From Gemmatales bacterium (lineage in GTDB: Bacteria; Planctomycetota; Planctomycetia; Gemmatales; HRBIN36): a stretch of 64,000 nucleotides of DNA. The stretch is from assembly GCA_041640595.1 (NCBI GenBank), contig JBEPZY010000001.1, positions 352,001 through 416,000 on the forward strand, written 5' to 3'. A program made the position numbers and the translations under genes. Position 1 is the first letter of the stretch, and each line of letters starts with the position of its first letter. This document shows positions 1,888 to 25,700 of this stretch, piece by piece. The notes under the pieces are model-generated. The model was not told the origin of the DNA. It made no database searches and saw nothing but the letters and a program-made list of their open reading frames with translations.

Positions 1888-1905
1888 GAGTTTTCTCCTT
1901 TTCAG

Positions 1906-3090
1906 TTATTTGACCGAATGGTCAACCGCATCTTGCAGCCAGCGCAATCGCGCCAAGGTTACGTCATCGTTTTTCATCCGTGACTGAGAACGCAAGTCGT
2001 TCAAAAATGTGACAATTTCTTGCCCAGCTTGGGGAAGAATGCTCGTGGCCGGGTGCTGATGACCGCGAACGCTTTGCAACTCCTGGACAATCCAGGCCGA
2101 CAGGGCATCCGTAGCCAACCAGATTTCATCTCCGGGCAAGAGTTGCCCATGCCCCAGATGGATGCACTGTTTTTTTAGGTAGCGAATATTGTAGTTGGCG
2201 TCGGTGCTCACCAGGGCAGGCGACACGCTGAAGTCCTTGGCCGTCATCCGGGGAATCATTTGCAACTGCTGTCCGCCGCGAAAGTGAAAAAGGCAATTAT
2301 CGCCGACGACTAACACCCGGTAACTGCAACCTGCGTGGCCGGTTTCCCCGGACAACACGAAATCGGCCACCAGGAGAGTTGCATGGGCACCCTGTTCGGC
2401 TTTGGCTTCGATAAACCAGGGAAGATTTTCCCAGTGCTGATGAGACCGCCACTTTTCTGCCTGCTGGTGGAGCCACTGTAAAAATTTGTGTCTGACCCGA
2501 CCGGAAACGCTTCCGGCAGTCAGGACGGTAAGGAGATCATTAGCAGCCTGGTAAGTGTCGGGACATTCCTGTGCATCCTGAGCCGCGTGGTAAGTGAGCA
2601 GTTGTGCCCACTCGGCGGAGGCATAGGAATCGCTGGCGCCATCACTGATGGCAATAGTAAGTCGGCCCGTGGATTTCCAGTTCCAGACCCGGCGATGGTC
2701 GGTACCGTAATTACTGCAATGATCCACGACGCAGTTGCAGGCATAGGCCCAGGCGTCCTCGCACTCATGAAGCTGATTGCCGAGCTTAGGCAACCGATAG
2801 ATTTCTAAATGCCAACCTTTCTTCAGCCATGTCCAAGCGGCAGGTCGTTCGGGCAATTTTTGCCGGTCACCTTGCTGGCCTTGTAACTGGGGTGAGCTAA
2901 CCGTCGCTTCAACAGACACCGAAACGGCAGGTCGTAATGGCGAGCCGGGATTTTCGGCTGGGGTAGGTCGAGTCCCCTTTTCGTCGCTCGGTAACCTGCT
3001 TTGTTGCAGCAGATTGATTTGCAGCGGATAGTATCGGGCGAATAGGGGACTATTGCGCCAGTGGAACATGCGTAGCCACGACCAGGGCAT
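1906..3090 (-). CDS. PP2C-like protein phosphatase (YegK/TerY-P triad type)
   Basis: Motifs ECEDA, AISDGAS, VGDNCLF, LATDALS and KNDDVT. Sits between the vWA and kinase genes. Start codon uncertain. Confidence 0.8.
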   Translation of the reverse strand: MPWSWLRMFHWRNSPLFARYYPLQINLLQQSRLPSDEKGTRPTPAENPGSPLRPAVSVSVEATVSSPQLQGQQGDRQKLPERPAAWTWLKKGWHLEIYRLPKLGNQLHECEDAWAYACNCVVDHCSNYGTDHRRVWNWKSTGRLTIAISDGASDSYASAEWAQLLTYHAAQDAQECPDTYQAANDLLTVLTAGSVSGRVRHKFLQWLHQQAEKWRSHQHWENLPWFIEAKAEQGAHATLLVADFVLSGETGHAGCSYRVLVVGDNCLFHFRGGQQLQMIPRMTAKDFSVSPALVSTDANYNIRYLKKQCIHLGHGQLLPGDEIWLATDALSAWIVQELQSVRGHQHPATSILPQAGQEIVTFLNDLRSQSRMKNDDVTLARLRWLQDAVDHSVK

Positions 3091-3107
3091 GTAGCGGCTT
3101 CCGGTGT

Positions 3108-3932
3108 TTAGCGAAGGTTTTTCGGGCGGGTGCCAATGTTCAGGAATCGAACGACTTCCGTCATGGGAGCGTTGAAGACGAAGCCGCGTGATCGATAAGT
3201 AACGGGCAGGTTTTCGTTTTGTGCCAGCGAGACAATATGCGGCGGCAAAATGCTGGACATGCGGAACAGTAAACGGGCATGATCGTCAGGCAGGTAAGCA
3301 TCATCTTCAGGATACAGGCAGGGCTGCGCTTTGGTTTCCGAGATGTGCAGGTTGAACAGCAAAACCTGGCCATCTTGGGTAGCCAGTTGGCGAATGGCGG
3401 TTGCTTCATCTTCCGGGTCGCCATCTGTTGGTTGCCCGTCTGTTATGTTGATCACAATAGGCGGGAAGGAGCGAGGATGTGCAGCGACCCAGTGGTTGAG
3501 AATCGCATACGCTCGCCGCAACGCTGCGCACATGGGAGTGCCATCATCGGCCACCGGCTCAACCCACACCGGGAATCGGCGTTCACGCTCCTGGTCCCGA
3601 CGTACTTCGACACGCAGAGGTGACGCAGCCAGTTCGGAAACGCGTACTAACTCCCTGCCACTCAACGCCCCGCCTAATGCCGAACCTACTATTCCCCCTT
3701 GAGCACCATAGCCGATGACGCCAATCTCGTAATAGTCGCGTACGCCTTCACGGGCATCTTTGGTGCAGCGAATGCACAAATCCATGAGCAGACGATTCAA
3801 AGCGTCGGCCAAAGCATCCGCTTTACGTCGGCCGCTTTCATCTCCTACTGGATCACTCATCGAGCCGGATTGGTCAATCAGGAACAGGAAGCAGGTTGGA
3901 TTGCTGCGGCTGATTTCTGCCTCGTAGGCCAT
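3108..3932 (-). CDS. vWA-domain protein (TerY/YegL-like)
   Basis: MIDAS motif DQSGSM, plus GTPM and NITDGQPTD. ATG at 3932 with AAGGAG RBS (ORF track extends to 3977). Confidence 0.85.
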   Translation of the reverse strand: MAYEAEISRSNPTCFLFLIDQSGSMSDPVGDESGRRKADALADALNRLLMDLCIRCTKDAREGVRDYYEIGVIGYGAQGGIVGSALGGALSGRELVRVSELAASPLRVEVRRDQERERRFPVWVEPVADDGTPMCAALRRAYAILNHWVAAHPRSFPPIVINITDGQPTDGDPEDEATAIRQLATQDGQVLLFNLHISETKAQPCLYPEDDAYLPDDHARLLFRMSSILPPHIVSLAQNENLPVTYRSRGFVFNAPMTEVVRFLNIGTRPKNLR

Positions 3933-4210
3933 TGTTGTACTCCTTGTTCTTGGTTTGCTTGAATTCCGCCTGTCCAACTACTTAAACGGAAGTCGTGAAT
4001 TGTTTGTGACACAAAAGTTGCCCGGAATCGTTTGGAGGAGACGATGCAGCGGGGATACGCCTGGGAGCCGTCGTTTACGGAACTGTCATCTTTTGGTCGC
4101 TTGCTGCGTTAAACAACTGGCACATTTCGCCGCGAAAGCTGCTTTCGTGCGAACAACGACTAAGCGGGATTTCTTCAGGCAAAGGAAAGCCAGTAAGGAA
4201 GGAGCATGCC

Positions 4211-4525
4211 ATGTACTTTCTGGTGGCTTACGACATTTCCGATCCGAAACGGTTACAGCGAGTCGCCCGCTTTATGGAACGGCGTGCTTTACGCTGCCAG
4301 AAGTCGGTCTTCATGTACCAGGGTGATGTCCAGGGGGTCAGTCGCCTTTTAAACGAGGTAGTCGAGTTGCTCGATACGCAGTCCGACATTGTGCAGGTCT
4401 GGCAACTGGCGCGAGGTCAGCCCTTGACCGGTTGGTATCGCGGTCGGCCCATGCCGCTGGACCCGGCTGGCTGTGTCGTAGCAGGTAACCGTGCCGTCCT
4501 GGTCGAAAAACCCCGACGGGGCTAA
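4211..4525 (+). CDS. cas2: CRISPR-associated endoribonuclease Cas2
   Basis: MYFLVAYDISDPKRLQRVARFM...CQKSVF signature, 104 aa, GGAG RBS. Confidence 0.92.
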   Translation: MYFLVAYDISDPKRLQRVARFMERRALRCQKSVFMYQGDVQGVSRLLNEVVELLDTQSDIVQVWQLARGQPLTGWYRGRPMPLDPAGCVVAGNRAVLVEKPRRG

Positions 4526-4564: not shown

Positions 4565-4854
4565 GTGCGAGATGACAGCGGGTTACTTTCTACGCGGGCC
4601 TACGGATACGGTCACGAAGGCAGTCATCCATGGAATCGCCCAGCTCCGTTACTCCCGTAAGTCGGTATAGCTCCCGCGGTGCAACCCGAGCGCTTCTCGA
4701 GGGTTGCTGCGCATGGATTTTCCTGACCCGGTCTCGCGTTCCTACGAAACCAATCAAGCACCGGTTGGCGCCATTGAAAGGGGCCCCGATAGCTGGTGCA
4801 GAAACAGCGTCGCGGGTAGGAAAATTTTTGTCACATCGAACGGTCATCTTGCGT
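4565..4854 (+). ncRNA. Candidate structured RNA between cas2 and the RT gene
   Basis: Nested stems read directly: 4567-4576/4843-4852, 4626-4632/4712-4718, 4642-4672 hairpin, 4681-4687/4701-4707, 4718-4730/4813-4824 and 4758-4766/4791-4799. No credible ORF. Expression is not shown. Confidence 0.45.
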
Positions 4855-4903
4855 TATCTAGGAGGAAGGAAAGTCAACCCATCACACGAAAGGATGCCTA
4901 GCC

Positions 4904-6556
4904 ATGCCAGCGATGAACGGCCAACCAGTGATTGAGGTGTTACCACGGGTTTATCGGAGTATTCCCGCTCCCCAGCGAGCTCTGGAAGAGCTGCAGGCAG
5001 AGCTTTACGCAGAGGTACGGGCGAAAGGTCGGCCCGTCGGCCAACTGGTAACTGCTCTGCTCGACCGCCGCAACTTGTACGCTGCCTGGCGATTTGTCCG
5101 GAATGCCGATGGTGCTGACACCCCGGGGCCGGATGGCCTGACTTGCAAGGACCTGGAACAATCGGCGGATTCCGGGGATGCTTTGCATCGCTTGTTCGAA
5201 CAGATTAGCCGGGACATACTTGATGGCCGTTATTGTCCGCAACCGCCGCGCTGGGTAGAGGTTCCCAAGCCTAATGGTGGTACTCGGCGTTTGGGCATCC
5301 TGACGGTGCGGGATCGCCTTGTGCATGCCGCTCTCAAAAACGTTCTCGAACCTATCCTGGAGCCGATTTTTACTTCCGCCAGCTTTGGTTTTCGACCGGG
5401 GAGAAGCACCACTGCTGCTTTGCTGGCGGCCATTAGATGGGCCGGCCCAGATGATCACGGCCGGCTCGTTTATCCCTATGCCATGCATCTGGATATCGAG
5501 GACTGTTTCGACACCATAGACCACCAGCATCTGTTCAGCGCCCTTTCCGAGCATGTTGCCGATGCTATCGTCCTGAAGCTTCTTCGCAAGCTGTTGGAAG
5601 CCTGTGCCCATTCGGTGCGTCGCTGGTTTCGCACTTACTACGTTGGGCTGTTGCAGGGAAGTGTGCTTTCGCCGCTTTTATGCAATTTGGCTCTGCACTC
5701 CCTCGACAAGGTTATGCTCAACATGCGCAGCGCCACCCAGAAGGGTATCGCTTATTTCCGTTATGCGGACGACTTACTCATCCTGGCTCGCAGCGAAGAG
5801 CTGGCAGTCAAGGCTTTTCGTTCTGCCAGCGCTTTTTTGCAGAGCATCGGACAGCGCTTCAAGGCCCGCAAACCGGAAATCGCTCTCCTCACTCGCGGTG
5901 TCGAATGGCTTGGCATGCGTATCTGCGTCACCGTCAATCCCTGGACCTCGAAACTTCAGCCCGGTTACTACATTCCAGATGCCTGTGTGGCCGAGATGGT
6001 CCAACGCCTTCAGGAAATGACCGTTCCTCCCAGTGCTAAGCTATCGGAGCAAACCTTCGACCTCCGCCAATGGATCATATCTATCAACCGGCAGTTGCAA
6101 GGCTGGCACAATGCCTATCAATACGCCGAGAATTTTTACCAGGTGGCCCGTACACTCGATGACGTTGTTCAGCAGCGGTTCGAAGAGCTTCTGATGGCTG
6201 TCACCGGCAAAGGGCGTCAGTACGTACGGGGCACTTATCGGGTTCGTTTGCCCCGCGGATTCACGACTTGGCAGGTAGATGGGGAGCAGTTGCTGGTGCT
6301 ATCGTCCAAGCCGCCGCATTTCCCCAATCCGAAACTGCTCTACCAACGACCCGCCTGGATGCGTGCTCCGCAGAACGCCATCCTACCGCAAGCCAACGCT
6401 GGCCAGACGCCATTCTGGTTGAACAATTTGCCTCAGCAGGCTCTGCCTCAGCCGCAAGCCCAACCGCCGAATGCCTTTGCTAACCCTCAGGATACCACAA
6501 ATCAACCTGGGCCCCCCACAGGAACTAATCCGGCCACCGGTCAGCACAATCCCTAA
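4904..6556 (+). CDS. CRISPR-associated reverse transcriptase (group II intron-like RT/maturase, not fused to Cas1)
   Basis: RT0 (NLYAAW..TPGPDG), PKPNGGTRRLGI, SFGFRPGRS, LDIEDCFDTIDH, LQGSVLSPLL, catalytic YADD, WLG and thumb-like GW. No HNH domain. Pro/Gln/Asn-rich tail. Located between cas2 and cas1. Confidence 0.92.
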   Translation: MPAMNGQPVIEVLPRVYRSIPAPQRALEELQAELYAEVRAKGRPVGQLVTALLDRRNLYAAWRFVRNADGADTPGPDGLTCKDLEQSADSGDALHRLFEQISRDILDGRYCPQPPRWVEVPKPNGGTRRLGILTVRDRLVHAALKNVLEPILEPIFTSASFGFRPGRSTTAALLAAIRWAGPDDHGRLVYPYAMHLDIEDCFDTIDHQHLFSALSEHVADAIVLKLLRKLLEACAHSVRRWFRTYYVGLLQGSVLSPLLCNLALHSLDKVMLNMRSATQKGIAYFRYADDLLILARSEELAVKAFRSASAFLQSIGQRFKARKPEIALLTRGVEWLGMRICVTVNPWTSKLQPGYYIPDACVAEMVQRLQEMTVPPSAKLSEQTFDLRQWIISINRQLQGWHNAYQYAENFYQVARTLDDVVQQRFEELLMAVTGKGRQYVRGTYRVRLPRGFTTWQVDGEQLLVLSSKPPHFPNPKLLYQRPAWMRAPQNAILPQANAGQTPFWLNNLPQQALPQPQAQPPNAFANPQDTTNQPGPPTGTNPATGQHNP

Positions 6557-6588: not shown

Positions 6589-7617
6589 ATGGCGAAGCAC
6601 ATCACCTACGTGCAAACCCCGGTTGCCCATGTGGTCGGACCAGGCAAACTTAGGATTATCAACGGCCGCCTAGCTTTCACCACGGGCAACGGTACTCCCC
6701 TGCGCCTTGACCTCAACACTTTGCGTGCCATTTACTGCTACGGCAACGTCGGGGCAACTGATGAGGCGATACAACTGCTTTTTCAGCACGGCATTGACGT
6801 CGTTTGGCTTTCTCCAGCAGGTAACGAGTGTCGCGGACGACTCGTCCGCTACGATTCCAGCTCCGCTGCTTTGCGGATGATACAGCATCGCGTTTTGGCC
6901 CATCCACCCGCTCGACTGGAACTGGCCCGCTTCATCGTCCAGGCCAAAATTGAATCCCAAATGAAGGCCGCCAGGCATTATCAGCGCCAGGGGCTTTCTA
7001 TTGCCGGCAAATTCATCGAACAACTTCAGTCCGTTTTGGCTATGCTGCCCAGCGTGGCCTCTCTGGACGCCCTTCGTGGCTTTGAAGGACAGGCCTCCGC
7101 TCTCTGGTACGAGCTTTTCTCCCAGCTTCTTGTTCCCCCGTGGACCTTCCCTGGCCGCAACCGCAGACCACCTACAGACCCAGTCAATGCCTTGCTTAGC
7201 CTCGGCTACACCTTGCTCTTCCGCCGCACAGAGGCTAGAACCGAAGCTCACGGCTTGGAAGTCGCTCTGGGAGCTTTGCATGAATTCCGACACGGCCGAC
7301 CTTCCCTGGCCTGTGACTTTGTGGAGCCGTTTCGCGTCCCCGCTGTCGACCGATGGGTCCTGACTATTTGCAATCAACACCGCCTGCAGCCCCAACATTT
7401 CCAAAATACCCCGGAAGGTATCCGTTTGACCCCTGACATGTTTCCTCGTATCATTGCTTCGTGGGAACAACATTTCGTATCTCACGGTTTTGAACGCTCT
7501 TTGGAAAACTGCCTTCAGCAATGGATAAGCATCCTACGGTCCTGGGCGAACCGCTTGCCTGACCCCCTTTTGCCACCCCAGGACAGTGCACCCCCAGGCA
7601 ACACCGTAACTTCCTGA
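6589..7617 (+). CDS. cas1: CRISPR-associated integrase Cas1
   Basis: Motifs LRGFEGQAS, RRPPTDPVNALLSLGY, GALHE and LACDFVEPFR. GGAGG RBS. Adjacent to the array. Confidence 0.95.
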   Translation: MAKHITYVQTPVAHVVGPGKLRIINGRLAFTTGNGTPLRLDLNTLRAIYCYGNVGATDEAIQLLFQHGIDVVWLSPAGNECRGRLVRYDSSSAALRMIQHRVLAHPPARLELARFIVQAKIESQMKAARHYQRQGLSIAGKFIEQLQSVLAMLPSVASLDALRGFEGQASALWYELFSQLLVPPWTFPGRNRRPPTDPVNALLSLGYTLLFRRTEARTEAHGLEVALGALHEFRHGRPSLACDFVEPFRVPAVDRWVLTICNQHRLQPQHFQNTPEGIRLTPDMFPRIIASWEQHFVSHGFERSLENCLQQWISILRSWANRLPDPLLPPQDSAPPGNTVTS

Positions 7618-7748
7618 ACGCAAAACACTTACGTGCAAAAATGTCCTTACTGACAAAGCATCTCAACAAGCCTTTTCGTCGGGATGTCATACCGCTAGGC
7701 AGTTTCCGTTCTTATGTTCCGGCCCATTCGAGCGTTGCGCCCGCCAGA
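7618..7748 (+). promoter_or_regulatory. CRISPR leader
   Basis: Non-coding 131 bp between the cas1 stop and the first repeat. The decayed repeats are at the opposite end of the array. Confidence 0.75.
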
Positions 7749-10700
7749 CTCGCAACTTAGACCCCAACCAATAGGGGATTGAAACGATAGCGGCTACTAC
7801 CATTGTTCCTCCCTCCTTGGGCTCGCAACTTAGACCCCAACCAATAGGGGATTGAAACGCCGGGCCCTGGCCTTCCGGCTGGAGACCAGGGCCAGCTCGC
7901 AACTTAGACCCCAACCAATAGGGGATTGAAACAGTTCTGATGAGAAAGTTATACCCGCCGGCGTAGATGCTCGCAACTTAGACCCCAACCAATAGGGGAT
8001 TGAAACTGCATCTGTTGGCAAAGACTATCAATACCTTTAGAAACTCGCAACTTAGACCCCAACCAATAGGGGATTGAAACCGCCAGGGTTCCGGCCTGTA
8101 TCCGCGCTGCCGCCCCAGCCTCGCAACTTAGACCCCAACCAATAGGGGATTGAAACACTCGCAAGACGGGTATTGGCCTGTATCCGCGCTGCCGCCTCGC
8201 AACTTAGACCCCAACCAATAGGGGATTGAAACGACACTGCTGCCCCAGCAATAATCATGTCCAACCACCTCGCAACTTAGACCCCAACCAATAGGGGATT
8301 GAAACGTCGAAACTACTTCTTGCCCCGCCGCCCCCGCCCGGCTCGCAACTTAGACCCCAACCAATAGGGGATTGAAACCACTGCTGCCCCAGCAATAATC
8401 ATGTCCAACCACCTCCTCGCAACTTAGACCCCAACCAATAGGGGATTGAAACAATCATGTCCAACCACCTCCTTGGGCCCGTTGATAAACTCGCAACTTA
8501 GACCCCAACCAATAGGGGATTGAAACGGTGCGAGGCAGCTACTTCTTGTTTTTGCTACGCCCGCCTCGCAACTTAGACCCCAACCAATAGGGGATTGAAA
8601 CTGAACTTGCACCCTAAGCTTTTCCAGCTCCGCCAGACTCGCAACTTAGACCCCAACCAATAGGGGATTGAAACCATTGCGGCTCCGGCTATCATACTCC
8701 CCTCCTTTGGGCTCGCAACTTAGACCCCAACCAATAGGGGATTGAAACCTCCGGCTATCATACTCCCCTCCTTTGGGCCGAATAACTCGCAACTTAGACC
8801 CCAACCAATAGGGGATTGAAACAATCCGACAATGATGGATACTAGGCAGATTGCGGCTCTCGCAACTTAGACCCCAACCAATAGGGGATTGAAACCACAC
8901 AAACAACAACATCTTGGATAACCTTTGGTAACTCGCAACTTAGACCCCAACCAATAGGGGATTGAAACACCAACCAAACCTCCGATGCCGCCACGCATTC
9001 CCGGCTCGCAACTTAGACCCCAACCAATAGGGGATTGAAACAGCAGACGACCCCTGGCCGGACTCGATGAGTTGCATGACTCGCAACTTAGACCCCAACC
9101 AATAGGGGATTGAAACAGTATCCAACCAAGAATTACACTGACCAGTGCCAAACTCGCAACTTAGACCCCAACCAATAGGGGATTGAAACAATGACCATCT
9201 AACACTTTACCTTCATAAAGACAACCTCGCAACTTAGACCCCAACCAATAGGGGATTGAAACACCGTAGACGCCGAGGATGAGAGGCCTAAGCATTCAAT
9301 CTCGCAACTTAGACCCCAACCAATAGGGGATTGAAACCAAAGACGAGGCCTGCGGCTCCTCACTGGTCCACCCCTCGCAACTTAGACCCCAACCAATAGG
9401 GGATTGAAACACATTTCGTCAGAATCTGTTTGCCCCAACATTAACGCCTCGCAACTTAGACCCCAACCAATAGGGGATTGAAACGGCCAGGAGGAATCCG
9501 ACTAGCACAGATACTAAGGACTCGCAACTTAGACCCCAACCAATAGGGGATTGAAACACTGCCGCGCCGACAACAATCATAATTCTCCCCTCCTCTCGCA
9601 ACTTAGACCCCAACCAATAGGGGATTGAAACCAACGAATTTTGCAAAATTGGTAACGCAGTTTCCAAACTCGCAACTTAGACCCCAACCAATAGGGGATT
9701 GAAACGCGGGCGATGCGGGCCAGTATGAACCCGAGGAGGACCTCGCAACTTAGACCCCAACCAATAGGGGATTGAAACCCCGAGGAGGACAGAAACGAGA
9801 GAAATGCCAGCGCCCTCGCAACTTAGACCCCAACCAATAGGGGATTGAAACGTCTTCTTGGCCCGGGGCTCCCGCCGGGCCCGGCGGGCCTCGCAACTTA
9901 GACCCCAACCAATAGGGGATTGAAACATCATGTCCTCTCCTCCTGCGTCTGGGGCCCGTTGATCTCGCAACTTAGACCCCAACCAATAGGGGATTGAAAC
10001 CGGGCGATGGCCCTGTCGACGGAACTTACGGATCTGCACTCGCAACTTAGACCCCAACCAATAGGGGATTGAAACAGTGGTGCCCGCGCTTCCGCCGCAG
10101 AAGCGCGCCGACCTCGCAACTTAGACCCCAACCAATAGGGGATTGAAACGGGCACTCCAATTGAAGTGGTGCCCGCGCTTCCGCCGCCTCGCAACTTAGA
10201 CCCCAACCAATAGGGGATTGAAACCTTCCCGGCGTCCGCCGCCTGCGGCTCCCCACTGGGCCTCGCAACTTAGACCCCAACCAATAGGGGATTGAAACTT
10301 GCCCGCCGCGGGCCTCGTCAAAGACGAGGCCGCACTCGCAACTTAGACCCCAACCAATAGGGGATTGAAACATCGTTCATCAAACCCATCAACCAAATCC
10401 AACTCACAACTCGCAACTTAGACCCCAACCAATAGGGGATTGAAACAAAAGTACTGCGCCACGCGCTCCATATGGCTGCCTCCTCGCAACTTAGACCCCA
10501 ACCAATAGGGGATTGAAACATACCAGCTCCAACAATAATCATGTCCTCTCCTCCTCGCAACTTAGACCCCAACCAATAGGGGATTGAAACACCAGCTCCA
10601 ACAATAATCATGTCCTCTCCTCCTGCGCTCGCAACTTAGACCCCAACCAATAGGGGATTGAAACTTGCGGGTCTTGCCCCGCCGCCGCTCCCGCCGAGAC

Positions 10701-13700
10701 CTCGCAACTTAGACCCCAACCAATAGGGGATTGAAACCCCGATCAAGAGAGAGACCAAAGCAACCCCCGCCCCTCTCGCAACTTAGACCCCAACCAATAG
10801 GGGATTGAAACACGGCGCTATTTCTTGCGGGTCTTGCCCCGCCGCCGCTCTCGCAACTTAGACCCCAACCAATAGGGGATTGAAACGCCCGGGCCGCCGG
10901 GAGACCCGGATGCGGGCCAGGACACTCGCAACTTAGACCCCAACCAATAGGGGATTGAAACCTTACCTGCCTGTGGCGTGACGCTAAGTCTTGCGGCCTC
11001 GCAACTTAGACCCCAACCAATAGGGGATTGAAACCCGAGAACGACGGAAACGAGCGCTATTGTTGACCCGGCCTCGCAACTTAGACCCCAACCAATAGGG
11101 GATTGAAACCCCGGCTATCATACTCACCCTCCTGCGTTGCGTCTTTCTCGCAACTTAGACCCCAACCAATAGGGGATTGAAACTGAGCCGGCGGTACAAT
11201 TCCCGCCGGTCCTCGGTGGTCTCGCAACTTAGACCCCAACCAATAGGGGATTGAAACCCGGCTCCCCACTGGGCACTCCAACTGAAGTGGTGCCCGCCTC
11301 GCAACTTAGACCCCAACCAATAGGGGATTGAAACTGCTCCCAACACCATTTTTCTCCCCTCCATTTGGGCTCGCAACTTAGACCCCAACCAATAGGGGAT
11401 TGAAACTGTCCCGCCCGGGCCGCCGCCCCCGGCTGCTCCGGGCCTCGCAACTTAGACCCCAACCAATAGGGGATTGAAACCCATGTGGCGTGGCGGGTGT
11501 TAAGACTTGCGGCGGGTCTCGCAACTTAGACCCCAACCAATAGGGGATTGAAACGACGAGGCCGCAGTCAGGGCAGCGGCTGGCCTCCTCGGCTCGCAAC
11601 TTAGACCCCAACCAATAGGGGATTGAAACGGCGTCGACCGGGCGACCACCCGATCGGAATTTGTGGCTCGCAACTTAGACCCCAACCAATAGGGGATTGA
11701 AACGCGGTCAGATCGAAAAGAAAGGACAAAATTATAATCTCGCAACTTAGACCCCAACCAATAGGGGATTGAAACCCCCCCCGCGTTTACCGGCCTTCCT
11801 TGGCCGGTTGCCCCTCGCAACTTAGACCCCAACCAATAGGGGATTGAAACGCCAGTATGAATCCGACCAGGACCGAAATGATAGAAACTCGCAACTTAGA
11901 CCCCAACCAATAGGGGATTGAAACGACCAGGACCGAAATGATAGAAATGGAAGCTCCCAACAACTCGCAACTTAGACCCCAACCAATAGGGGATTGAAAC
12001 CCAACAACATTTTTTTCCTCCACATTTGGTTTTGGCCTCGCAACTTAGACCCCAACCAATAGGGGATTGAAACGATAGAAATGGAAGCTCCCAACAACAT
12101 TTTTTCCTCCCTCGCAACTTAGACCCCAACCAATAGGGGATTGAAACGCCGCTACAATGCGGCAAGGGCGTGGCCGTGCCACTCCTCGCAACTTAGACCC
12201 CAACCAATAGGGGATTGAAACGCGGGACAAGCGCAAGTAGCCGTCGTCACGATCTTTCTCGCAACTTAGACCCCAACCAATAGGGGATTGAAACAATGGC
12301 CGCTCCAGCAATAATCATATTCTCCCTCCATCTCGCAACTTAGACCCCAACCAATAGGGGATTGAAACAGCAATAATCATATTCTCCCTCCATTGGGCCA
12401 GTTGACTCGCAACTTAGACCCCAACCAATAGGGGATTGAAACACAGCGCAAGGCTGGATACTCAACGAAGCCGATGCACTCGCAACTTAGACCCCAACCA
12501 ATAGGGGATTGAAACACCCGGTTACGCCGAGTGAGCCGGCGATACAACTCCCCTCGCAACTTAGACCCCAACCAATAGGGGATTGAAACGGCCTGATGGG
12601 GTTTCCAGTCGCCATCCTGCCCGTGCCCTCGCAACTTAGACCCCAACCAATAGGGGATTGAAACAACTACCACGGCGGCCTGCCTCTGACCCCTAACCCA
12701 GCTCGCAACTTAGACCCCAACCAATAGGGGATTGAAACACGCCGAGTGAGCCGGCGATACAACTCCCGGCGGTCCTCGCAACTTAGACCCCAACCAATAG
12801 GGGATTGAAACTAGGCAGGCCTGATGGGGTTTCCAGTCGCCATCCTGCCTCGCAACTTAGACCCCAACCAATAGGGGATTGAAACAATAGACCTTGCGAT
12901 TAAGTCTGCGGAAGTTCTCATGCTCGCAACTTAGACCCCAACCAATAGGGGATTGAAACTTCTCGCCCGGCTCCTGGGCCTCCGGAGCCGGGCACTCGCA
13001 ACTTAGACCCCAACCAATAGGGGATTGAAACAACAGGTGACGGAACCCTAAACTTCTTCACCTTCGACTCGCAACTTAGACCCCAACCAATAGGGGATTG
13101 AAACACCTTCGACACTTTAACCTCAATGTTACCATCCAGGCTCGCAACTTAGACCCCAACCAATAGGGGATTGAAACTTAGCCTTCCGCAGGACTTCGTC
13201 CGGAACACGCAATCTCGCAACTTAGACCCCAACCAATAGGGGATTGAAACCGTCCCCCCACTACCCCGATGTAGTGGGGGCGGACACCTCGCAACTTAGA
13301 CCCCAACCAATAGGGGATTGAAACTCAAACAGGTGACGGAACCCTAAACTTCTTCACCTTCTCGCAACTTAGACCCCAACCAATAGGGGATTGAAACTGG
13401 CCATACATGCAAGGCGGCCACCTATGCCAGCCAACCTCGCAACTTAGACCCCAACCAATAGGGGATTGAAACCCGGAGCGGACCCGGGCTAGGATAAACC
13501 CAATCAGAACTCGCAACTTAGACCCCAACCAATAGGGGATTGAAACCCGCCGCCGCCCCCGGCTCTTGCCCCGGTCCCGCCGCCTCGCAACTTAGACCCC
13601 AACCAATAGGGGATTGAAACTCCCGGCGGCTCACTCGGAGGTTATCCGGGGCCTCCCTCTCGCAACTTAGACCCCAACCAATAGGGGATTGAAACCGCGG

Positions 13701-16700
13701 GGGCACGCTCGGTTCCTCCGAGTGAGCCGCCGGTCTCGCAACTTAGACCCCAACCAATAGGGGATTGAAACCGACCTTCCTTGGTCGGTTGCCCGCTGCG
13801 GCCCTCGTCCTCGCAACTTAGACCCCAACCAATAGGGGATTGAAACGCAGTCTGGGCAGCGGGTGGTCTCTTCCCTCAACGGCCCTCGCAACTTAGACCC
13901 CAACCAATAGGGGATTGAAACACCCGGGCAAGGATAAATCCGGTTAGCACTGAGATCACTCGCAACTTAGACCCCAACCAATAGGGGATTGAAACTCTTA
14001 CCCTCCATTTTTTGGTCCTTGGGGCCCGTTGACTCGCAACTTAGACCCCAACCAATAGGGGATTGAAACTCCACCGACGCGACTTCTGCACCTTTAAGCC
14101 CTCCTCCTCGCAACTTAGACCCCAACCAATAGGGGATTGAAACTGCTGCTCCGCCTGCTGCTGCTGCTGCTGCTCCCTCGCAACTTAGACCCCAACCAAT
14201 AGGGGATTGAAACAACTTCGATGTGACCACCATCCAGAAGAATCCTAGCACTCGCAACTTAGACCCCAACCAATAGGGGATTGAAACCGCAAAGCACATG
14301 AGATGTATTTGAAAAATCCTAAATCTCGCAACTTAGACCCCAACCAATAGGGGATTGAAACACTGCTGACCCTAGCAGCATCTTTCTCCTCCCTCATCTC
14401 GCAACTTAGACCCCAACCAATAGGGGATTGAAACTGTCCCGCCCGGTCCGCCGCCGGGCGAGGCGGGCCAGCTCGCAACTTAGACCCCAACCAATAGGGG
14501 ATTGAAACGCATCTTTCTCCTCCCTCATGGTCCTTGGGGCCCGTTCTCGCAACTTAGACCCCAACCAATAGGGGATTGAAACAGCATCTTTCTCCTCCCT
14601 CATGGTCCTTGGGGCCCGTTCTCGCAACTTAGACCCCAACCAATAGGGGATTGAAACATCACCCAATTACAAATAGCCGCCGGGATTCTTTCCCCTCGCA
14701 ACTTAGACCCCAACCAATAGGGGATTGAAACGACTTGCCCTGCTGAGGCTCGTCGAAGACGAGCCGGCACTCGCAACTTAGACCCCAACCAATAGGGGAT
14801 TGAAACGAGGTACTCGCAGGACGGGTATTGACCTGTATCCGCGCTCGCAACTTAGACCCCAACCAATAGGGGATTGAAACAGCGGGTGGCTTCCTCCGTC
14901 AACGGCCACCCGCAACGCTCGCAACTTAGACCCCAACCAATAGGGGATTGAAACGGAACGCACGAAACGCACGCAAACCATCCTCTAAACCTCGCAACTT
15001 AGACCCCAACCAATAGGGGATTGAAACAACGCCAGGAAACCTGCCCGTGCGGTGGGCCGCCCTCCTCGCAACTTAGACCCCAACCAATAGGGGATTGAAA
15101 CCGCTATTTCTTGCGGGTCTTGCGCCCCCGCCCCCGGCCTCGCAACTTAGACCCCAACCAATAGGGGATTGAAACAGTAAGATCGCTCTCGAAAGTCAAT
15201 CGCGATGTCCGCCTCGCAACTTAGACCCCAACCAATAGGGGATTGAAACGACAGTAACTCCATCGTTCCGGCAAACTACTTGGTACTCGCAACTTAGACC
15301 CCAACCAATAGGGGATTGAAACGATTCTTGCTCCGCCGACCCCGCCGACCCCGCCGGAGCTCGCAACTTAGACCCCAACCAATAGGGGATTGAAACACTC
15401 TTCGATGTCCTGTACGGGCCTGATGGCACCACCTCGCAACTTAGACCCCAACCAATAGGGGATTGAAACCACCCCTTCTCGCCCGGCTCCTGGGCCTACG
15501 GCAGCCCTCGCAACTTAGACCCCAACCAATAGGGGATTGAAACCGCGATGTCCGCCTCTTCTGGGTTTTCGTCATCCCAACTCGCAACTTAGACCCCAAC
15601 CAATAGGGGATTGAAACGGAATTTATCCTTTTCATTTTCCATAACCTCCTCAAACTCGCAACTTAGACCCCAACCAATAGGGGATTGAAACCTATTAAGA
15701 TGAGGTCGTAATATTACGTTTACGTGCCTCGCAACTTAGACCCCAACCAATAGGGGATTGAAACTTTTTTGAGTAAGATCGCTCTCGAAAGTCAATCGCG
15801 CTCGCAACTTAGACCCCAACCAATAGGGGATTGAAACCTTCGTCCCTTTTCGGCCCATCCTTCTCGCCCGGCTCCTCGCAACTTAGACCCCAACCAATAG
15901 GGGATTGAAACTCAGGAGCCGGGCAAAGTCCGACCCCCGCTACCCCGCTCGCAACTTAGACCCCAACCAATAGGGGATTGAAACGTTCCTTCCTAACATT
16001 ATCTTCTGGTTCGTGTTTTTCGCTCGCAACTTAGACCCCAACCAATAGGGGATTGAAACTTTTATAACTGCTACACGGACCACGGCCTTCCCTCCTTCTC
16101 GCAACTTAGACCCCAACCAATAGGGGATTGAAACCCTGTGGCGGGCGGCTACGACTTCTTGCGCTTCTTCTTCTCGCAACTTAGACCCCAACCAATAGGG
16201 GATTGAAACCACTACCATTCCTACACCTCCTTCCTTTGGTTTTGGCTCGCAACTTAGACCCCAACCAATAGGGGATTGAAACCCCGGGAGATTGGTCTTT
16301 GCCGCCGGGCCCGGGCCAGCCTCGCAACTTAGACCCCAACCAATAGGGGAATTGAAACGCCCATAACATTTCTCTTTCCTCCTGGTCTTTGGGGCCCTCG
16401 CAACTTAGACCCCAACCAATAGGGGATTGAAACGACCACGCCCCCGCCCGGGCCACCGGGAGACCCGGGCCTCGCAACTTAGACCCCAACCAATAGGGGA
16501 TTGAAACCATTTCTCTTTCCTCCTGGTCTTTGGGGCCCGAATACTCGCAACTTAGACCCCAACCAATAGGGGATTGAAACTGACAGCTGCCCATAACATT
16601 TCTCTTTCCTCCTGGTCCTCGCAACTTAGACCCCAACCAATAGGGGATTGAAACGGCCCGGGCGGGGGCGTGGTCTTTGGGGCCCGAATAAACTCGCAAC

Positions 16701-19700
16701 TTAGACCCCAACCAATAGGGGATTGAAACAACATTTCTCTTTCCTCCTGGTCTTTGGGGCCCGAATCTCGCAACTTAGACCCCAACCAATAGGGGATTGA
16801 AACGTAGTACTTTGCGTAGTGCATAATATCCCTCCTATAGCCTCGCAACTTAGACCCCAACCAATAGGGGATTGAAACAACGATAACTTCATAAACGCCG
16901 GATTTTTCAACAAACTCGCAACTTAGACCCCAACCAATAGGGGATTGAAACAGAACACAAACGTTTCAAACTTTGATTTAACCCAGTCTCGCAACTTAGA
17001 CCCCAACCAATAGGGGATTGAAACGACAGACAGCTGCTCCTAGCATGTCCATTTCCTCCGCTCGCAACTTAGACCCCAACCAATAGGGGATTGAAACACC
17101 TGGCGGGTGCGAGGCTAAGTCTTGCGCTTTTTTCTCGCAACTTAGACCCCAACCAATAGGGGATTGAAACTCCGTCTTTGGGGCCCGTTGATAAGACCCC
17201 TCCCTACTCGCAACTTAGACCCCAACCAATAGGGGATTGAAACGCTCTTGTCCCGCTCCCGGCGGGTCCGGGCCCGGCGCTCGCAACTTAGACCCCAACC
17301 AATAGGGGATTGAAACATAATTCCCGGCGGTCCTCGACATCGACCTGCCGGACCTCGCAACTTAGACCCCAACCAATAGGGGATTGAAACGCTGTGGGGC
17401 TAAGGCGGAAACCCCACAATCCTGCCTCGCAACTTAGACCCCAACCAATAGGGGATTGAAACGACGCGGGCAAGCAGGAATCCAATTAGGACGGAGGCCT
17501 CGCAACTTAGACCCCAACCAATAGGGGATTGAAACTCCTGTTACTTCTGAAAGAGTTTCCAGTCGACAAAACCTCGCAACTTAGACCCCAACCAATAGGG
17601 GATTGAAACCGCTTGGACCTGTTCTTGCTGAGGTTGATCAGCTTGCTCGCAACTTAGACCCCAACCAATAGGGGATTGAAACACTACCATTTCCCTTTTT
17701 TAGGAGTTGAAGCTGACCAAACTCGCAACTTAGACCCCAACCAATAGGGGATTGAAACTATAATACCCTCTATAAGGCTTGGCATGGGCCTTAATCCTCG
17801 CAACTTAGACCCCAACCAATAGGGGATTGAAACTCGGCGGGCCGCTTTTCTTTGGAGGGAACGCCGGTCCTCGCAACTTAGACCCCAACCAATAGGGGAT
17901 TGAAACAGAAATGGCCGCTCCGGCTATCATATTTCCTCCCTCCCTCGCAACTTAGACCCCAACCAATAGGGGATTGAAACACTATGTCCCTTCCGTGATA
18001 GAGGTACTCGCAGGACGGCTCGCAACTTAGACCCCAACCAATAGGGGATTGAAACGGCTAAGGCGGAAACCCCACAATCCTGCCTCTGGGCCTCGCAACT
18101 TAGACCCCAACCAATAGGGGATTGAAACCCTCGTCCGTCAACGGCCACCCGCAACGGGGGCACTATGCTCGCAACTTAGACCCCAACCAATAGGGGATTG
18201 AAACGGCCAATGCCGGGTAGATTGTATCTAACGCCACGGGCCTCGCAACTTAGACCCCAACCAATAGGGGATTGAAACACAGGTACACTTTATCAAACCC
18301 GTACTCCTTGCCTTTCTCGCAACTTAGACCCCAACCAATAGGGGATTGAAACGACGCCGTCTGCTACGCGGGGGCTACCGGGCTCCGGCCTCGCAACTTA
18401 GACCCCAACCAATAGGGGATTGAAACACTGGACAACCGGCTCGAACTTCAAGCCAAGACTGGCCTCGCAACTTAGACCCCAACCAATAGGGGATTGAAAC
18501 GTCCGTCAACGGCCACCCGCAACGGGGGCATGCCCGGCTCGCAACTTAGACCCCAACCAATAGGGGATTGAAACGACGTGGCCGCCGGACCCGTCGGATA
18601 TGGCCGCCGTCCTCGCAACTTAGACCCCAACCAATAGGGGATTGAAACGCAATCGCCTTGGGCACCACGGGACGTGGCCGCCGGACTCGCAACTTAGACC
18701 CCAACCAATAGGGGATTGAAACTCCATTTTAATGCCCACGCGGCAATCGCCTTGGGCACCTCGCAACTTAGACCCCAACCAATAGGGGATTGAAACACAA
18801 CGGAAACAATTGCTATGACTGATCTGGCTATCTCGCAACTTAGACCCCAACCAATAGGGGATTGAAACGTTATCCAGATCAACAACCTCAACCTCACAAC
18901 TTCCCTCGCAACTTAGACCCCAACCAATAGGGGATTGAAACTAATGTGTAGTCTCTCATCAGGTTGAATGCCACATTTCTCGCAACTTAGACCCCAACCA
19001 ATAGGGGATTGAAACGTGAAGCTGCGGCTTGTCATATTTGACCTCCTTTCTAACTCGCAACTTAGACCCCAACCAATAGGGGATTGAAACACCGAAACGA
19101 TTGCTACTGCTGCTCCTATAACCATAACTCGCAACTTAGACCCCAACCAATAGGGGATTGAAACGCTGCTCCTATAACCATAATTTCCTCCTGCGTCTTT
19201 CTCGCAACTTAGACCCCAACCAATAGGGGATTGAAACCCTGCCATCGGGCCATCCAGGCCATTGCGGCCCATGCCTCGCAACTTAGACCCCAACCAATAG
19301 GGGATTGAAACATATGAAACCGCATGGTAGAGTTGTTCATTTGCAGGCTCGCAACTTAGACCCCAACCAATAGGGGATTGAAACAATTACTTCAGCATAT
19401 CGCTCAATATATCGGACCATGCTCGCAACTTAGACCCCAACCAATAGGGGATTGAAACTCATATCCTCCCTCCATTATGGTTTGGGCCCGTTGACTCGCA
19501 ACTTAGACCCCAACCAATAGGGGATTGAAACAGCATAACATCTCATTAAGTGAACGCTCTTCCTAACCTCGCAACTTAGACCCCAACCAATAGGGGATTG
19601 AAACGCAAGGGCGTGGCCGTGCCACTCAGCCGGGTTCATACTCGCAACTTAGACCCCAACCAATAGGGGATTGAAACGCAGTCTGGGCAGCGGGTGGCTT

Positions 19701-22700: not shown

Positions 22701-25700
22701 AGACCTCGTCCGGGATTTTCAGACTAAAGCCCCGAGCCTCGCAACTTAGACCCCAACCAATAGGGGATTGAAACTTCAACCCCGTTATCCAGGATAAGCT
22801 TTGCGAACCGGCTCGCAACTTAGACCCCAACCAATAGGGGATTGAAACCAATAAGAAAAGCGACTAACGTGTTTACCCAGAACTGTCTCGCAACTTAGAC
22901 CCCAACCAATAGGGGATTGAAACTATCTTTACGCATCTTTCCATATTTGTCCTCCCCTTTCTCGCAACTTAGACCCCAACCAATAGGGGATTGAAACAAT
23001 GCGGTGAGTGTGAAACTCGCAAAAACCCTAGAACTCGCAACTTAGACCCCAACCAATAGGGGATTGAAACTCTGGCAACTGGTCAGTTGGTCTCGGTTGG
23101 CTACATCTCGCAACTTAGACCCCAACCAATAGGGGATTGAAACATGATTGTAGCGACACGGACCATGGCTATCCTCCTTCTCGCAACTTAGACCCCAACC
23201 AATAGGGGATTGAAACACACGGATTTGCGGCAGGCTAATACTTAGCCTGCCTCTCGCAACTTAGACCCCAACCAATAGGGGATTGAAACAACCATACCTA
23301 AAAACTCACAAAACAGGTAGAACGGCTCGCAACTTAGACCCCAACCAATAGGGGATTGAAACGGCAACGCGATAGACATTTCACTCTGCAGATCCCAATC
23401 TCGCAACTTAGACCCCAACCAATAGGGGATTGAAACACCCCCACTACCCCGATGTAGCGGAGGGCGGACAACACTCGCAACTTAGACCCCAACCAATAGG
23501 GGATTGAAACGCCCGGCTCCTGGGCCTACGGCAGCCGGGCAAAGTCCCTCGCAACTTAGACCCCAACCAATAGGGGATTGAAACGGATTTGCGGCAGGCT
23601 AATACTTAGCCTGCCTCAGACTCGCAACTTAGACCCCAACCAATAGGGGATTGAAACGGCCCGGCGGTCGAAGGAGGTCTAACGACACTATATCTCGCAA
23701 CTTAGACCCCAACCAATAGGGGATTGAAACTATAGCCGTGGCTCGGCAGGGCAGGAGCGCTGGGAACTCGCAACTTAGACCCCAACCAATAGGGGATTGA
23801 AACTTAACCCAGTCAATAACGGTGCTAACGATTTCGGACTCGCAACTTAGACCCCAACCAATAGGGGATTGAAACAATGTCGAACAGATATTTCAAACTT
23901 CTCACCTTTAACCTCGCAACTTAGACCCCAACCAATAGGGGATTGAAACTCCTAGCGCATCGTTCCATGCCTGTCTCCCTGTTTGGCCTCGCAACTTAGA
24001 CCCCAACCAATAGGGGATTGAAACGAATTCCCGGTCAACATAAAGGCCATTGACCTCAATCTCTCGCAACTTAGACCCCAACCAATAGGGGATTGAAACA
24101 GCTGCGTTGGCTGTGTAGCCGCATGGCCACATGGCCTCGCAACTTAGACCCCAACCAATAGGGGATTGAAACGTCACGTCCTCTCCCTGTGGCGGGTGAC
24201 GACGGCTAACTCGCAACTTAGACCCCAACCAATAGGGGATTGAAACAATCCGATAAGAACGGATACAATAGCTATGGCCGACCTCGCAACTTAGACCCCA
24301 ACCAATAGGGGATTGAAACGAAAGAGTTTCAGCCAGTCGATAAAACTTTCATCAGTCTCGCAACTTAGACCCCAACCAATAGGGGATTGAAACTGCAGTC
24401 CTGAGAATGCACACAGCACATAGATCGTCCTCGCAACTTAGACCCCAACCAATAGGGGATTGAAACTGTGCTTTCATCCAATCAAGCACGAACTGACGCC
24501 ATCTCGCAACTTAGACCCCAACCAATAGGGGATTGAAACATCAAAAGAGTAATGTCTATTCAAAAGCCAACATACCCTCGCAACTTAGACCCCAACCAAT
24601 AGGGGATTGAAACCCAACAACGTTTTCAACCGTAGCAACGCGGGCGGTGCTCGCAACTTAGACCCCAACCAATAGGGGATTGAAACACTGCCGACCCTAA
24701 CATCTTCCATCTCCATTATGGTCTCGCAACTTAGACCCCAACCAATAGGGGATTGAAACGCCAGTCGATAAAACTTTCATCAGTAACTGGCCTACGAGCT
24801 CGCAACTTAGACCCCAACCAATAGGGGATTGAAACATACCATTGTTGAAATCAACCTGTTGACCTTGCTCCTCTCGCAACTTAGACCCCAACCAATAGGG
24901 GATTGAAACTCTTCCATCTCCATTATGGTCTTTGGGCCCGTTGATACTCGCAACTTAGACCCCAACCAATAGGGGATTGAAACCTTCATTACGATGGTGT
25001 GCTGCACGCCTGTTAACCTCGCAACTTAGACCCCAACCAATAGGGGATTGAAACACAGTTACTTTCCAGGACTCAACAGGGTTGTCCAACTCGCAACTTA
25101 GACCCCAACCAATAGGGGATTGAAACGGTTATTCTCTTGCGATTACGCCCCAGTGCGTAATCGCTCGCAACTTAGACCCCAACCAATAGGGGATTGAAAC
25201 AGTATCGCATGGCATTCCTCCTGTTCTTTTACCCTCTCGCAACTTAGACCCCAACCAATAGGGGATTGAAACTCCGAGCTTTTGGAACTTTCACCTCCAC
25301 GGTGCCATCTCGCAACTTAGACCCCAACCAATAGGGGATTGAAACCAATAGCTATGGCCGACCCTCCTAACATCTCTTTCCCTCGCAACTTAGACCCCAA
25401 CCAATAGGGGATTGAAACCTTGAACTTTACGTAACTTCTCAGGATGTGTAACTTTCTCGCAACTTAGACCCCAACCAATAGGGGATTGAAACCTGGCTGC
25501 TTCTTTAAGGGCTTCGATGCAAAAGCCCCTCGCAACTTAGACCCCAACCAATAGGGGATTGAAACGACTTGGATTTGGTTCTTTCTAGGCATAGTTTTAC
25601 CCTCGCAACTTAGACCCCAACCAATAGGGGATTGAAACCTACCACCAGGACGAGGAGGGAAAGCAGCACAAATACTCGCAACTTAGACCCCAACCAATAG

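Follow-up and report, generated by a model that had tools for sequence, protein, structure and literature searches.

A reverse transcriptase-linked CRISPR array in a Gemmatales bacterium devotes about one third of its spacers to a single family of small membrane-peptide genes

The RT-Cas1 protein of Marinomonas mediterranea is reportedly a case of type III adaptation associated with a reverse transcriptase (RT) in CRISPR systems. The adjacent, unfused arrangement of RT and cas1 has also been described (mBio 2017, PMC5513706), and the accessible part of the same paper calls the spacer repertoires of the Arthrospira RT-Cas1 arrays "hyperdiverse, enigmatic". For Roseiflexus sp. RS-1 from the Yellowstone hot springs, the available portions of two preprints (bioRxiv 10.1101/2022.07.19.500677 and 10.1101/2022.02.15.480533) report that partiti-like RNA phages and a viroid-like circular RNA of 315 nucleotides (nt) are targeted by spacers of RT-linked type III arrays. 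Spacers matching Obelisks are also in print, according to an excerpt of PMC13096302. Here, we describe an RT-linked CRISPR array in a 64,000-nt stretch of a Gemmatales bacterium (Planctomycetota; assembly GCA_041640595.1, contig JBEPZY010000001.1, positions 352,001 to 416,000 of the forward strand), hereafter called the window, to which all coordinates refer unless another contig is named. About one third of this array, 79 of 246 spacers, was confidently assigned to one family of small peptide genes. We read this family as the abundant small messenger RNA (mRNA) of a DNA virus or plasmid, remembered by an RT-Cas1-Cas2 module, and give this joint reading a probability of roughly 0.55.

As in the Roseiflexus case, so far as the preprint portions describe it, the host is a hot-spring bacterium, the array is RT-linked and many of its spacers are directed against one small, diverse target. 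The same portions report that the Roseiflexus targets were found in metatranscriptomes, whereas the target here is known from spacers alone; it also differs in encoding a peptide with a bacterial ribosome-binding site and in showing no hammerhead words. With the Arthrospira arrays, as the available part of the paper presents them, the array shares the property of being a natural RT-linked array with spacers that match nothing known. Unlike them, it is not hyperdiverse: 134 of the 246 spacers fall into similarity clusters, and one tiny gene takes a third of the total. Compared with RT-Cas1 and RT-type III modules such as the Cas6-RT-Cas1 of Thiomicrospira (7kft), the locus is alike in placing a group-II-intron-like RT by cas1 and cas2 beside the array, and in the presence of type III effectors in the genome. 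It differs from the RT-Cas1 and Cas6-RT-Cas1 proteins in that the RT is a separate, unfused gene and that neither an effector gene nor cas6 stands beside the array.

The array lies on the + strand and consists of 247 repeats of 37 nt and 246 spacers of 33–40 nt. Its repeat carries ATTGAAAC at the 3' end, so the array is read as transcribed rightward. The sole degenerate repeat (4 mismatches) was observed at 16321–16357, in the middle of the array and not at its far end. Inspection of all 246 spacers by eye revealed that they overlap one another when reverse-complemented, and the largest cluster of a blastn similarity graph comprised 53 members. The earlier note on this DNA, made from the letters of the sequence, had counted about 70 or more of ~250 spacers as pieces of one unit, a count borne out by the slightly higher number given above, which came from reading every spacer. 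Among the family spacers, 38 cover the leader, the ribosome-binding site and the start, 20 the membrane helix, and 21 the tail, the stop and the 3' region. Two further spacers (20345–20381 and 18353–18389) are doubtful members, and three (17536–17572, 24320–24356 and 24760–24798) are possible diverged upstream variants.

The family genes share a common order, with a conserved leader, a Shine-Dalgarno word, an ATG, an N-terminal membrane helix, a tail rich in Arg, Lys and Gly, a stop codon and a GC-rich hairpin. The stop codon is TAG in nearly all of them, and the 3' region carries the conserved word that the earlier note had quoted. A Shine-Dalgarno-like word was identified 4–16 nt upstream of the ATG in 30 of the 32 start-bearing spacers, in keeping with the strong ribosome-binding site proposed there. 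The peptide can be read only as pieces of ~12 amino acids (aa), one per spacer. In-frame translations of the spacers and their alignment gave a peptide of 35–42 aa with one membrane helix, starting at residue 2–4 and rich in small residues, followed by a tail with 6–10 basic residues (Arg/Lys) that would be placed in the cytoplasm. With MAFFT, 29 in-frame fragment translations fell into one 31-column register in which two rows were misplaced; realignment without those two was worse. Allele differences numbered 564, 214 and 877 at codon positions 1, 2 and 3. Across 187 fragment pairs (1377 codon comparisons), the proportions of synonymous and nonsynonymous differences (pS and pN) were 0.65 and 0.29, corresponding to a ratio of nonsynonymous to synonymous change (dN/dS) of ~0.25, which is indicative only, as alignment was done on the translated fragments and the pairs are non-independent. 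The third-position excess and the low ratio indicate purifying selection on the predicted reading frame, as had been suspected from the free divergence of the nucleotides.

The 38 leader spacers formed 23 near-identical groups, equivalent to about 20 start-region alleles. The family extends from the first spacer (7786–7821) to the last, slightly beyond the span from 7786 to ~25345 reported before, and is densest at the cas-proximal end, which is presumably the newest. Its counts per sixth of the array, the two doubtful spacers included, were 21, 17, 17, 11, 9 and 6. Family spacers also lie side by side more often than by chance, with 46 adjacent pairs, where 10,000 shuffles gave 26.4 on average and never more than 40. 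Altogether, the array tiles the family gene ~14-fold, and several runs of consecutive spacers trace single alleles (Table 1). Four consecutive spacers singled out in the earlier note were recovered as quoted, together with all three of the peptide ends that it listed. The pieces of its composite peptide were found as well (9706–9963 and 10520–10627); they belong to two sub-variants, which differ at 2 of 11 overlapping bases.

Since the family spacers are offset and mutually diverged, their similarity does not come from spacer duplication. The only exact duplicate pair among the 246 spacers lies outside the family and consists of the identical 36-nt spacers 229 and 244, 15 positions apart at approximate coordinates 24614–24650 and 25713–25748. 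We consider it very improbable, and already largely refuted, that the family is such a duplication artefact or a self-targeted multicopy gene of the host's or a near-host chromosome. In favour of a host gene, the assembly is a draft (4.45 Mb, 42 contigs, 95% complete) from which a small replicon could be missing. However, a blastn-short comparison of all 246 spacers with the host assembly detected no protospacer for the peptide family, the sole off-array match being that of spacer 243, and a hidden Markov model (HMM) of the peptide, run over 116,456 host open reading frames (ORFs), gave a best non-array E-value of 0.68. The family is foreign to the host, since it is absent from the host assembly both by DNA and by peptide profile. 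The persistent, diverse foreign family of the earlier note thus stands, and the host multicopy gene that it had listed among the possible refutations of this view was not encountered.

The relatives of the host gave the same picture. The leader motif with up to 3 mismatches matched 6 of 401 Planctomycetota genomes, the host's own spacer included, which does not exceed the result of a backwards-pattern control and leaves the 400 further genomes of the phylum at chance level. With 2 mismatches, a single chance match was observed in 20 relatives (three congeners and 17 others). When the whole array was compared by BLAST with 150 genomes of the order, 14 showed GC-rich or low-complexity matches (E 0.0007–0.01) besides the repeats of the congeners; six of these were inspected, and none was the peptide gene. 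As a separate observation, spacer 243 (25639–25674) matches a 9.6-kb host contig (contig 15, ~1420–1455) over 27 nt at 93% identity. A spacer of the host's second array (20 nt, 95% to spacer 243) also matches this contig, which may be a mobile element targeted by both arrays.

Several features of the family spacers bear on how they were acquired. In 77 of 79 cases, the CRISPR RNA (crRNA), whose sequence is that of the + strand, would pair with the ORF in antisense. Spacer 061 represents the one clear case of opposite orientation and is, alone, no evidence of an antisense RNA. Within the family, similarity edges join spacers on the same strand in 116 cases and on opposite strands in 7, the latter comprising one edge of spacer 061, three of the chimeric spacer 121 and three due to palindromic GC words. 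Among the 165 non-family spacers, a Shine-Dalgarno word with a start codon was found 12 times in the sense orientation and never in the other, a sense frequency 2.6-fold above that of the host's second array (10 of 341 in its better orientation; p 0.035). The ends of the spacers are also non-randomly placed. Twelve of the 14 spacers with the leader GGCCC anchor start 4–10 nt before it (binomial p 5e-7 versus uniform), and counting by allele gives 9 of 10 (p 7e-6). In spacer 128, the AU-rich loop of the 7-bp stem is where these ends lie, and their pile-up suggests a defined RNA 5' end, either primary or processed.

Spacer 121 is a chimera. The 20 nt at its start are identical to the leader of spacers 119 and 122, the closing 21 nt match the tail of spacer 118 perfectly as a reverse complement, and the junction is a shared 5-nt word, a microhomology. 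Such a spacer could have arisen from a sense fragment that primed on the leader of another mRNA, or from template switching by the RT. Based on these indirect marks, namely the orientation bias, the end pile-up, this chimera, the concentration of 38 of the 79 family spacers on the leader or start and the 12-to-0 polarity of the ribosome-binding sites with start codons, we infer that the spacers were probably captured from RNA. The very high transcription that the earlier note had attributed to the target is plausible to this extent, by way of the RT-Cas1-Cas2 module and the marks of RNA capture.

The adaptation genes follow one another in the order cas2, a 101-aa ORF, RT and cas1, after which the array begins at 7749. 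The RT retains an intact YADD catalytic motif in translation. It scored 241 bits against NCBIfam group_II_RT_mat, under the cut-off of 300, and its best solved relatives were group II intron RTs, with the Cas6-RT-Cas1 structure 7kft at E 1.7e-15. The RT matches the RT half of the PADLOC Cas1_IIIb fusion profile (E 1.5e-38) and Cas1 matches the other half, which marks the array as served by a predicted RT-associated adaptation module whose RT is encoded separately. The same RT-cas1-array layout was observed in two congeners (RT 64–66% and Cas1 71% identical). A closely related repeat is present in the arrays of all three congeners, with orthologous RT and cas1 genes alongside in two of them. 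Type III effector genes occur at four places in the host genome, one of which is a full Cmr1–6 set: a Cas10/Cmr2 above cut-off on contig 8, adjoined by Cmr1 and Cmr3–6. Further RAMP and Cas10-like genes are distributed over contigs 3, 1 and 23. None of the scanned proteins beside the array matched Cas6, a search that did not extend to the remainder of the genome.

The earlier note had regarded the ~170-nt unit as a small element in itself, a claim that is not supported in this form. Spacer 128 extends 11 nt upstream of the leader and carries a TAG there, spacer 174 contains another upstream stop (Table 1), and spacers 192, 198 and 223 extend 25–35 nt past the family stop. In addition, other GC-rich targets are covered in the same orientation by ~50 more spacers, which are interspersed among those of the family. 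The upstream TAG, the 3' run-on and the co-targeted families speak against an isolated ~170-nt element, and the peptide unit more closely resembles a single cistron within a larger transcription unit. The leader motif was considered as the coding end of an upstream gene, a reading that was abandoned because its variants differ by 2-nt indels. Spacers 171 and 144 were likewise considered as family tails and dismissed, their stop being out of frame with the linking overlap.

The largest of the co-targets described here is a small zinc-ribbon ORF, identified from a blastn cluster and overlap layouts, that is stored antisense in 17 spacers (022, 032–035, 048, 052, 055, 082, 083, 095, 097, 141, 146, 162, 170 and 182). 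These are scattered over 9338–21192 (for instance at 18501–18537 and 21154–21192). The ORF contains two Cys-x-x-Cys pairs, the second of which is seemingly absent in some variants. Nine spacers cover a ~140-nt stretch, eight (including 13251–13287 and 22627–22662) cover a stretch with two near-perfect hairpins of 10–13 bp, and three smaller families were observed besides. Single spacers of the hairpin stretch fold with z −3.1 and its 102-nt layout, assembled in the analysis script, with z −5.1. ARAGORN detected no transfer RNA or transfer-messenger RNA in two such layouts of co-targeted stretches. Overlaps between the target families measure only 9–13 nt and contain mismatches, and no physical link was made. 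The interleaved families fit one invader as well as co-infecting invaders.

Under the preferred reading, that of a DNA virus or plasmid transcript, the RT-Cas1-Cas2 module would copy abundant invader RNA into the array, and the peptide mRNA would dominate the spacers as the transcript of greatest abundance or stability, its 5' end being fixed. This mRNA would begin inside the AU-rich hairpin loop and continue with a strong ribosome-binding site, an ORF of 35–42 codons, the TAG and the GC-rich 3' hairpin. Its product would be a single-pass membrane peptide with a polybasic cytoplasmic tail, and the gene would form one cistron of a larger unit with an upstream ORF and probably the zinc-ribbon gene. 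The antisense crRNAs would carry the 8-nt tag ATTGAAAC and guide type III (Cmr/Csm-like) complexes encoded elsewhere, so that the transcript would be cut and a type III response triggered. Successive infections by different alleles would then lead to fresh bursts of spacers. We think that the invader of this thermophilic planctomycete is highly polymorphic and that a DNA carrier is the more likely one. Both this use of the spacers by type III effectors and the nature of the carrier are what we infer.

Small mRNAs for single-pass membrane peptides are known from type I toxins (the Hok, Ldr, Fst and PepA1 class) and from the gene VIII coat protein of Ff phages. Type I toxins often occur in repeated copies, with stable processed mRNAs. 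The present family is similar in build to these toxins and to small lysis proteins: the mRNA is short, abundant and structured, with a strong ribosome-binding site, and the peptide has one helix and a basic C-terminus. Its 5' end is possibly made by processing; no sequence relationship is claimed. The tail, with its 6–10 Arg/Lys, is more basic than is usual in either the toxins or the Ff coat. A hydrophobic peptide of less than ~60 aa with one membrane helix, as in type I toxins, was found. The major coat proteins of inoviruses are small and carry, ahead of the helix, either a signal peptide or an exposed N-terminal segment that is usually acidic or amphipathic. The family peptide resembles them in size, in its one membrane helix and in its basic C-terminus, but no exposed N-terminal segment was seen in 24 start-bearing spacers, in which hydrophobic or small residues follow within 1–3 positions of the Met. 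As to its role, a membrane-anchored nucleic-acid-binding protein of the virion or its assembly and a small membrane protein of toxin or lysis type are equally tentative guesses, and some other function is only slightly less tentative than either. A limited literature search, in which supplementary spacer tables were not covered, retrieved no account of CRISPR targeting of a peptide family of this kind, and we do not claim that it is unpublished.

The toxin-like build raises the alternative that the family is a type I toxin-like or lysis-type membrane protein gene that plasmids or phages carry in several copies, paralogous to one another and perhaps in tandem, so that its alleles are partly paralogues. 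The helix from residue 2–4, the charged tail and the length would fit, as would an mRNA with a structured conserved leader and a 3' hairpin. Different alleles often adjoin in the array (for example, spacers 007–010 next to 013–014), and genes arranged head to tail would be compatible with the TAG that closely precedes the leader in spacers 128 and 174. However, the end of the upstream ORF in spacer 174 does not clearly correspond to a family tail, neither an antisense nor an antitoxin RNA is visible, and no copy was found in the host or the 20 relatives searched. We regard this explanation as improbable.

Returning to the preferred reading, a number of results weigh against it, the first of which come from the second CRISPR array of the host. 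This array comprises 341 spacers with a 30-nt repeat and was identified on contig 8 (2–21080), continued on contig 10 (65235–66999); the last two spacers on contig 10 are the first two on contig 8, so the contigs join there. Its repeat, when read in the other direction, which is its transcribed orientation, also ends in ATTGAAAC. It adjoins type I-B genes (cas1b, cas4, cas3, cas5 and cas7) as well as the full Cmr (III-B) set. None of its 341 spacers belongs to the peptide family, and no spacer of this DNA-fed array overlaps any of the GC-rich target families. Spacers with at least 70% G+C account for 23 of 341 in the second array and 53 of 246 in the RT-linked one (p 2e-7), and 54 of 341 cluster, with a largest group of 3, compared with 134 of 246 and a largest group of 53. 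The different clustering, targets and G+C content thus indicate that the two arrays sample different pools. This contrast is consistent with RNA-biased capture by the RT module, and it provides the best argument for a possible lack of a DNA stage in the GC-rich targets. It is not decisive, since random sampling of a large genome by a DNA-fed array would seldom hit a 220-nt cistron.

A target without a DNA stage would be an RNA-only replicon of the host, such as a segment of an RNA virus, a satellite or a small circular or tandem RNA, in which the peptide cistron is the most abundant or best conserved part and the RT module is the sole route by which the host can remember it. The DNA-fed array speaks for this, as it lacks the GC-rich families and is 3.8-fold poorer in spacers of at least 70% G+C. 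So do the absence of a DNA match in phage, plasmid, viral, genome and metagenome collections and the strong structure of some co-targeted stretches (z −5.1 in the 102-nt layout and z −3.1 in two single spacers). The source habitat is a hot spring, and a precedent exists in Roseiflexus, as far as the available text of the preprints goes (bioRxiv 10.1101/2022.02.15.480533 and 10.1101/2022.07.19.500677). On the other hand, the 3' motif is joined to the 5' motif in none of the spacers, although such a junction may escape notice in pieces of 37 nt. Hammerhead core words, the only words sought, occur in none of the GC-rich families, and the five spacers that do carry them are unrelated; ribozymes of other classes are not recognisable in pieces of this length. 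No cluster resembles a long polymerase ORF, and for a virus of several kb it would be odd to find one third of the spacers in ~220 nt. The collection searches were few, confined to exact patterns and to DNA, so that their blank says little. We consider an RNA-only replicon less probable than a DNA carrier, and indeed unlikely. Somewhat more doubtful still is its narrower form, a small GC-rich, hairpin-rich replicon or satellite that evolves fast enough to leave ~20 alleles in the memory of one host lineage, whose main product is the membrane-anchored, arginine-rich peptide of 35–42 aa and which is visible only through the RT-fed array.

The searches for the target also count against the preferred reading, as no protospacer-bearing sequence was found in any collection searched (host, relatives, phage, plasmid, viral, genome and metagenome). 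In IMG/VR, the leader motif, a conserved 22-mer of another target family, a leader-plus-helix pattern and a degenerate zinc-ribbon pattern gave no match, and a degenerate helix pattern gave five, none of which was a small ORF of the peptide type. The leader with the 3' motif matched JGI metagenome contigs once, by chance, inside a long high-GC gene. The leader with the helix matched the GTDB species genomes twice, both times within unrelated genes. The whole array gave no megablast match in phages and plasmids, and blastn with its first 8 kb gave none in phages and four GC-rich matches at E 0.6 in plasmids. The large collections were scanned with exact patterns in DNA only, by which diverged copies are missed, so these blanks are weak. 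Of the sampled array words, a tenth occur in one DNA run from a hot-springs metagenome, which also contains both array flanks at ~60-fold depth and is probably the source sample. No RNA run was among the sequencing runs listed for the array words. Contigs of the hot-springs run join across 11338–12107 and 12965–20696 (depths 34 and 2.5), which suggests variants without some spacer blocks, or else assembly across repeats.

The congeners add a further point on the same side. Among 134 spacers of their RT-linked arrays, a part of the spacers of three congeners, none belongs to the family or shares any target with the array studied here. This blank may merely reflect a different habitat. The congeners' RT-linked arrays have recurrent targets of their own, as illustrated by four overlapping spacers in loci L048 and L044. 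With regard to the marks of RNA capture, selection for functional type III guides, and not the route of capture, could underlie the orientation bias, and the pile-up of ends could be due to an integrase with a sequence preference instead of an RNA end. Most folds of single spacers lack significance. Neither a type III effector gene nor cas6 adjoins the array, the nearest effectors being ~340 kb away on the same contig, and the activity of the RT is a prediction from its sequence.

Table 1. Features of the RT-linked array and its adaptation module, with positions in the 64,000-nt window.
Feature	Position	Strand	Evidence or remark
cas2	4211..4525	+	NCBIfam TIGR01573 E 1.3e-07, above cut-off; PADLOC Cas2 models E down to 1e-12
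101-aa ORF between cas2 and RT	4630..4935	+	no NCBIfam or PADLOC matches; overlaps RT start by 32 nt
Stand-alone RT, 550 aa, group-II-intron-like	4904..6556	+	Pfam RVT_1 E 1.6e-33; YADD present
cas1	6589..7617	+	Pfam Cas_Cas1 E 6e-74; NCBIfam TIGR00287 E 4e-57; Cas1 half of PADLOC Cas1_IIIb
Presumed leader of the array	7618..7748	+	between cas1 and first repeat; role as leader presumed
CRISPR array, 247 repeats and 246 spacers	7749..25934	+	
Spacers 007, 009 and 010 of one allele (leader, ribosome-binding site, start) with tail spacer 008 (TAG)	8233..8489	-	overlap layout
Spacers 027–030: helix, helix/tail junction, tail and leader of the composite-peptide allele	9706..9963	-	translations, overlaps
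Zinc-ribbon examples, spacers 032–035	10076..10334	-	
Spacers 056–059, consecutive, tiling leader, start and helix of one allele	11851..12110	-	overlaps, translations
Spacer 061 (tail, TAG, 3' region), one clear family spacer in opposite orientation	12222..12257	+	matches spacer 223 on the opposite strand only
Spacers 117–122, six consecutive, one allele	16358..16766	-	overlaps
Chimeric spacer 121, among five spacers of its allele: leader joined to reverse complement of spacer 118 tail	16655..16692	-	
Spacer 128: TAG stop, 7-bp stem with start of leader motif in loop, then motif	17171..17206	-	fold −11.6 kcal/mol, z −1.4, not significant alone
Spacer 174: 26 nt upstream of leader motif, containing TAG stop	20566..20602	-	
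Spacers 192, 193, 196 and 198: tail, TAG, 3' motif, GC-rich stem beyond	21894..22371	-	folds z +0.5 and −1.4, not significant alone
Spacer 223: stop, 3' motif, hairpin	24173..24209	-	fold −14.4 kcal/mol, z −2.5
Last (oldest) spacer, family helix/tail junction	25859..25897	-	in-frame translation

Just upstream of the adaptation module, a triad of TerY, PP2C phosphatase and Ser-Thr kinase genes was identified on the - strand (547–3977), which PADLOC lists as a defence system (TerY E 2e-95, PP2C 2e-27, STK_OB 2e-61). Elsewhere in the host genome, intergenic tandem repeats of 92–93 nt and 72–75 nt were observed that are not CRISPR arrays (for example, contig 1:327326–327650 and contig 6:252623–252947).

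The array is unusual in the monopoly of one tiny translated gene, in the depth at which its alleles are sampled and in the fact that the anatomy of the target can be read from the array itself. From its spacers alone, one can make out the 5' end and the 3' hairpin of the target, as well as its ribosome-binding site and its ORF, which is under selection. In this it differs from natural RT-linked arrays in general, which are known for spacers without any match, so that what they defend against is mostly guesswork. The array also represents a natural data set with marks of RNA-templated capture, namely the end pile-up, the template-switch-like chimera and the sense-only start regions, and the second, DNA-fed array of the same cell, which lacks the family, serves as an internal control. 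To our knowledge, hardly any viruses of Planctomycetota have been described, and the spacers can be used as probes for fishing a virus, plasmid or RNA replicon of this phylum from the source spring. An RNA-only target would be a bacterial RNA parasite of a new kind. A phage or plasmid gene in this role would show how strongly transcript abundance shapes the memory of an RT-fed array.

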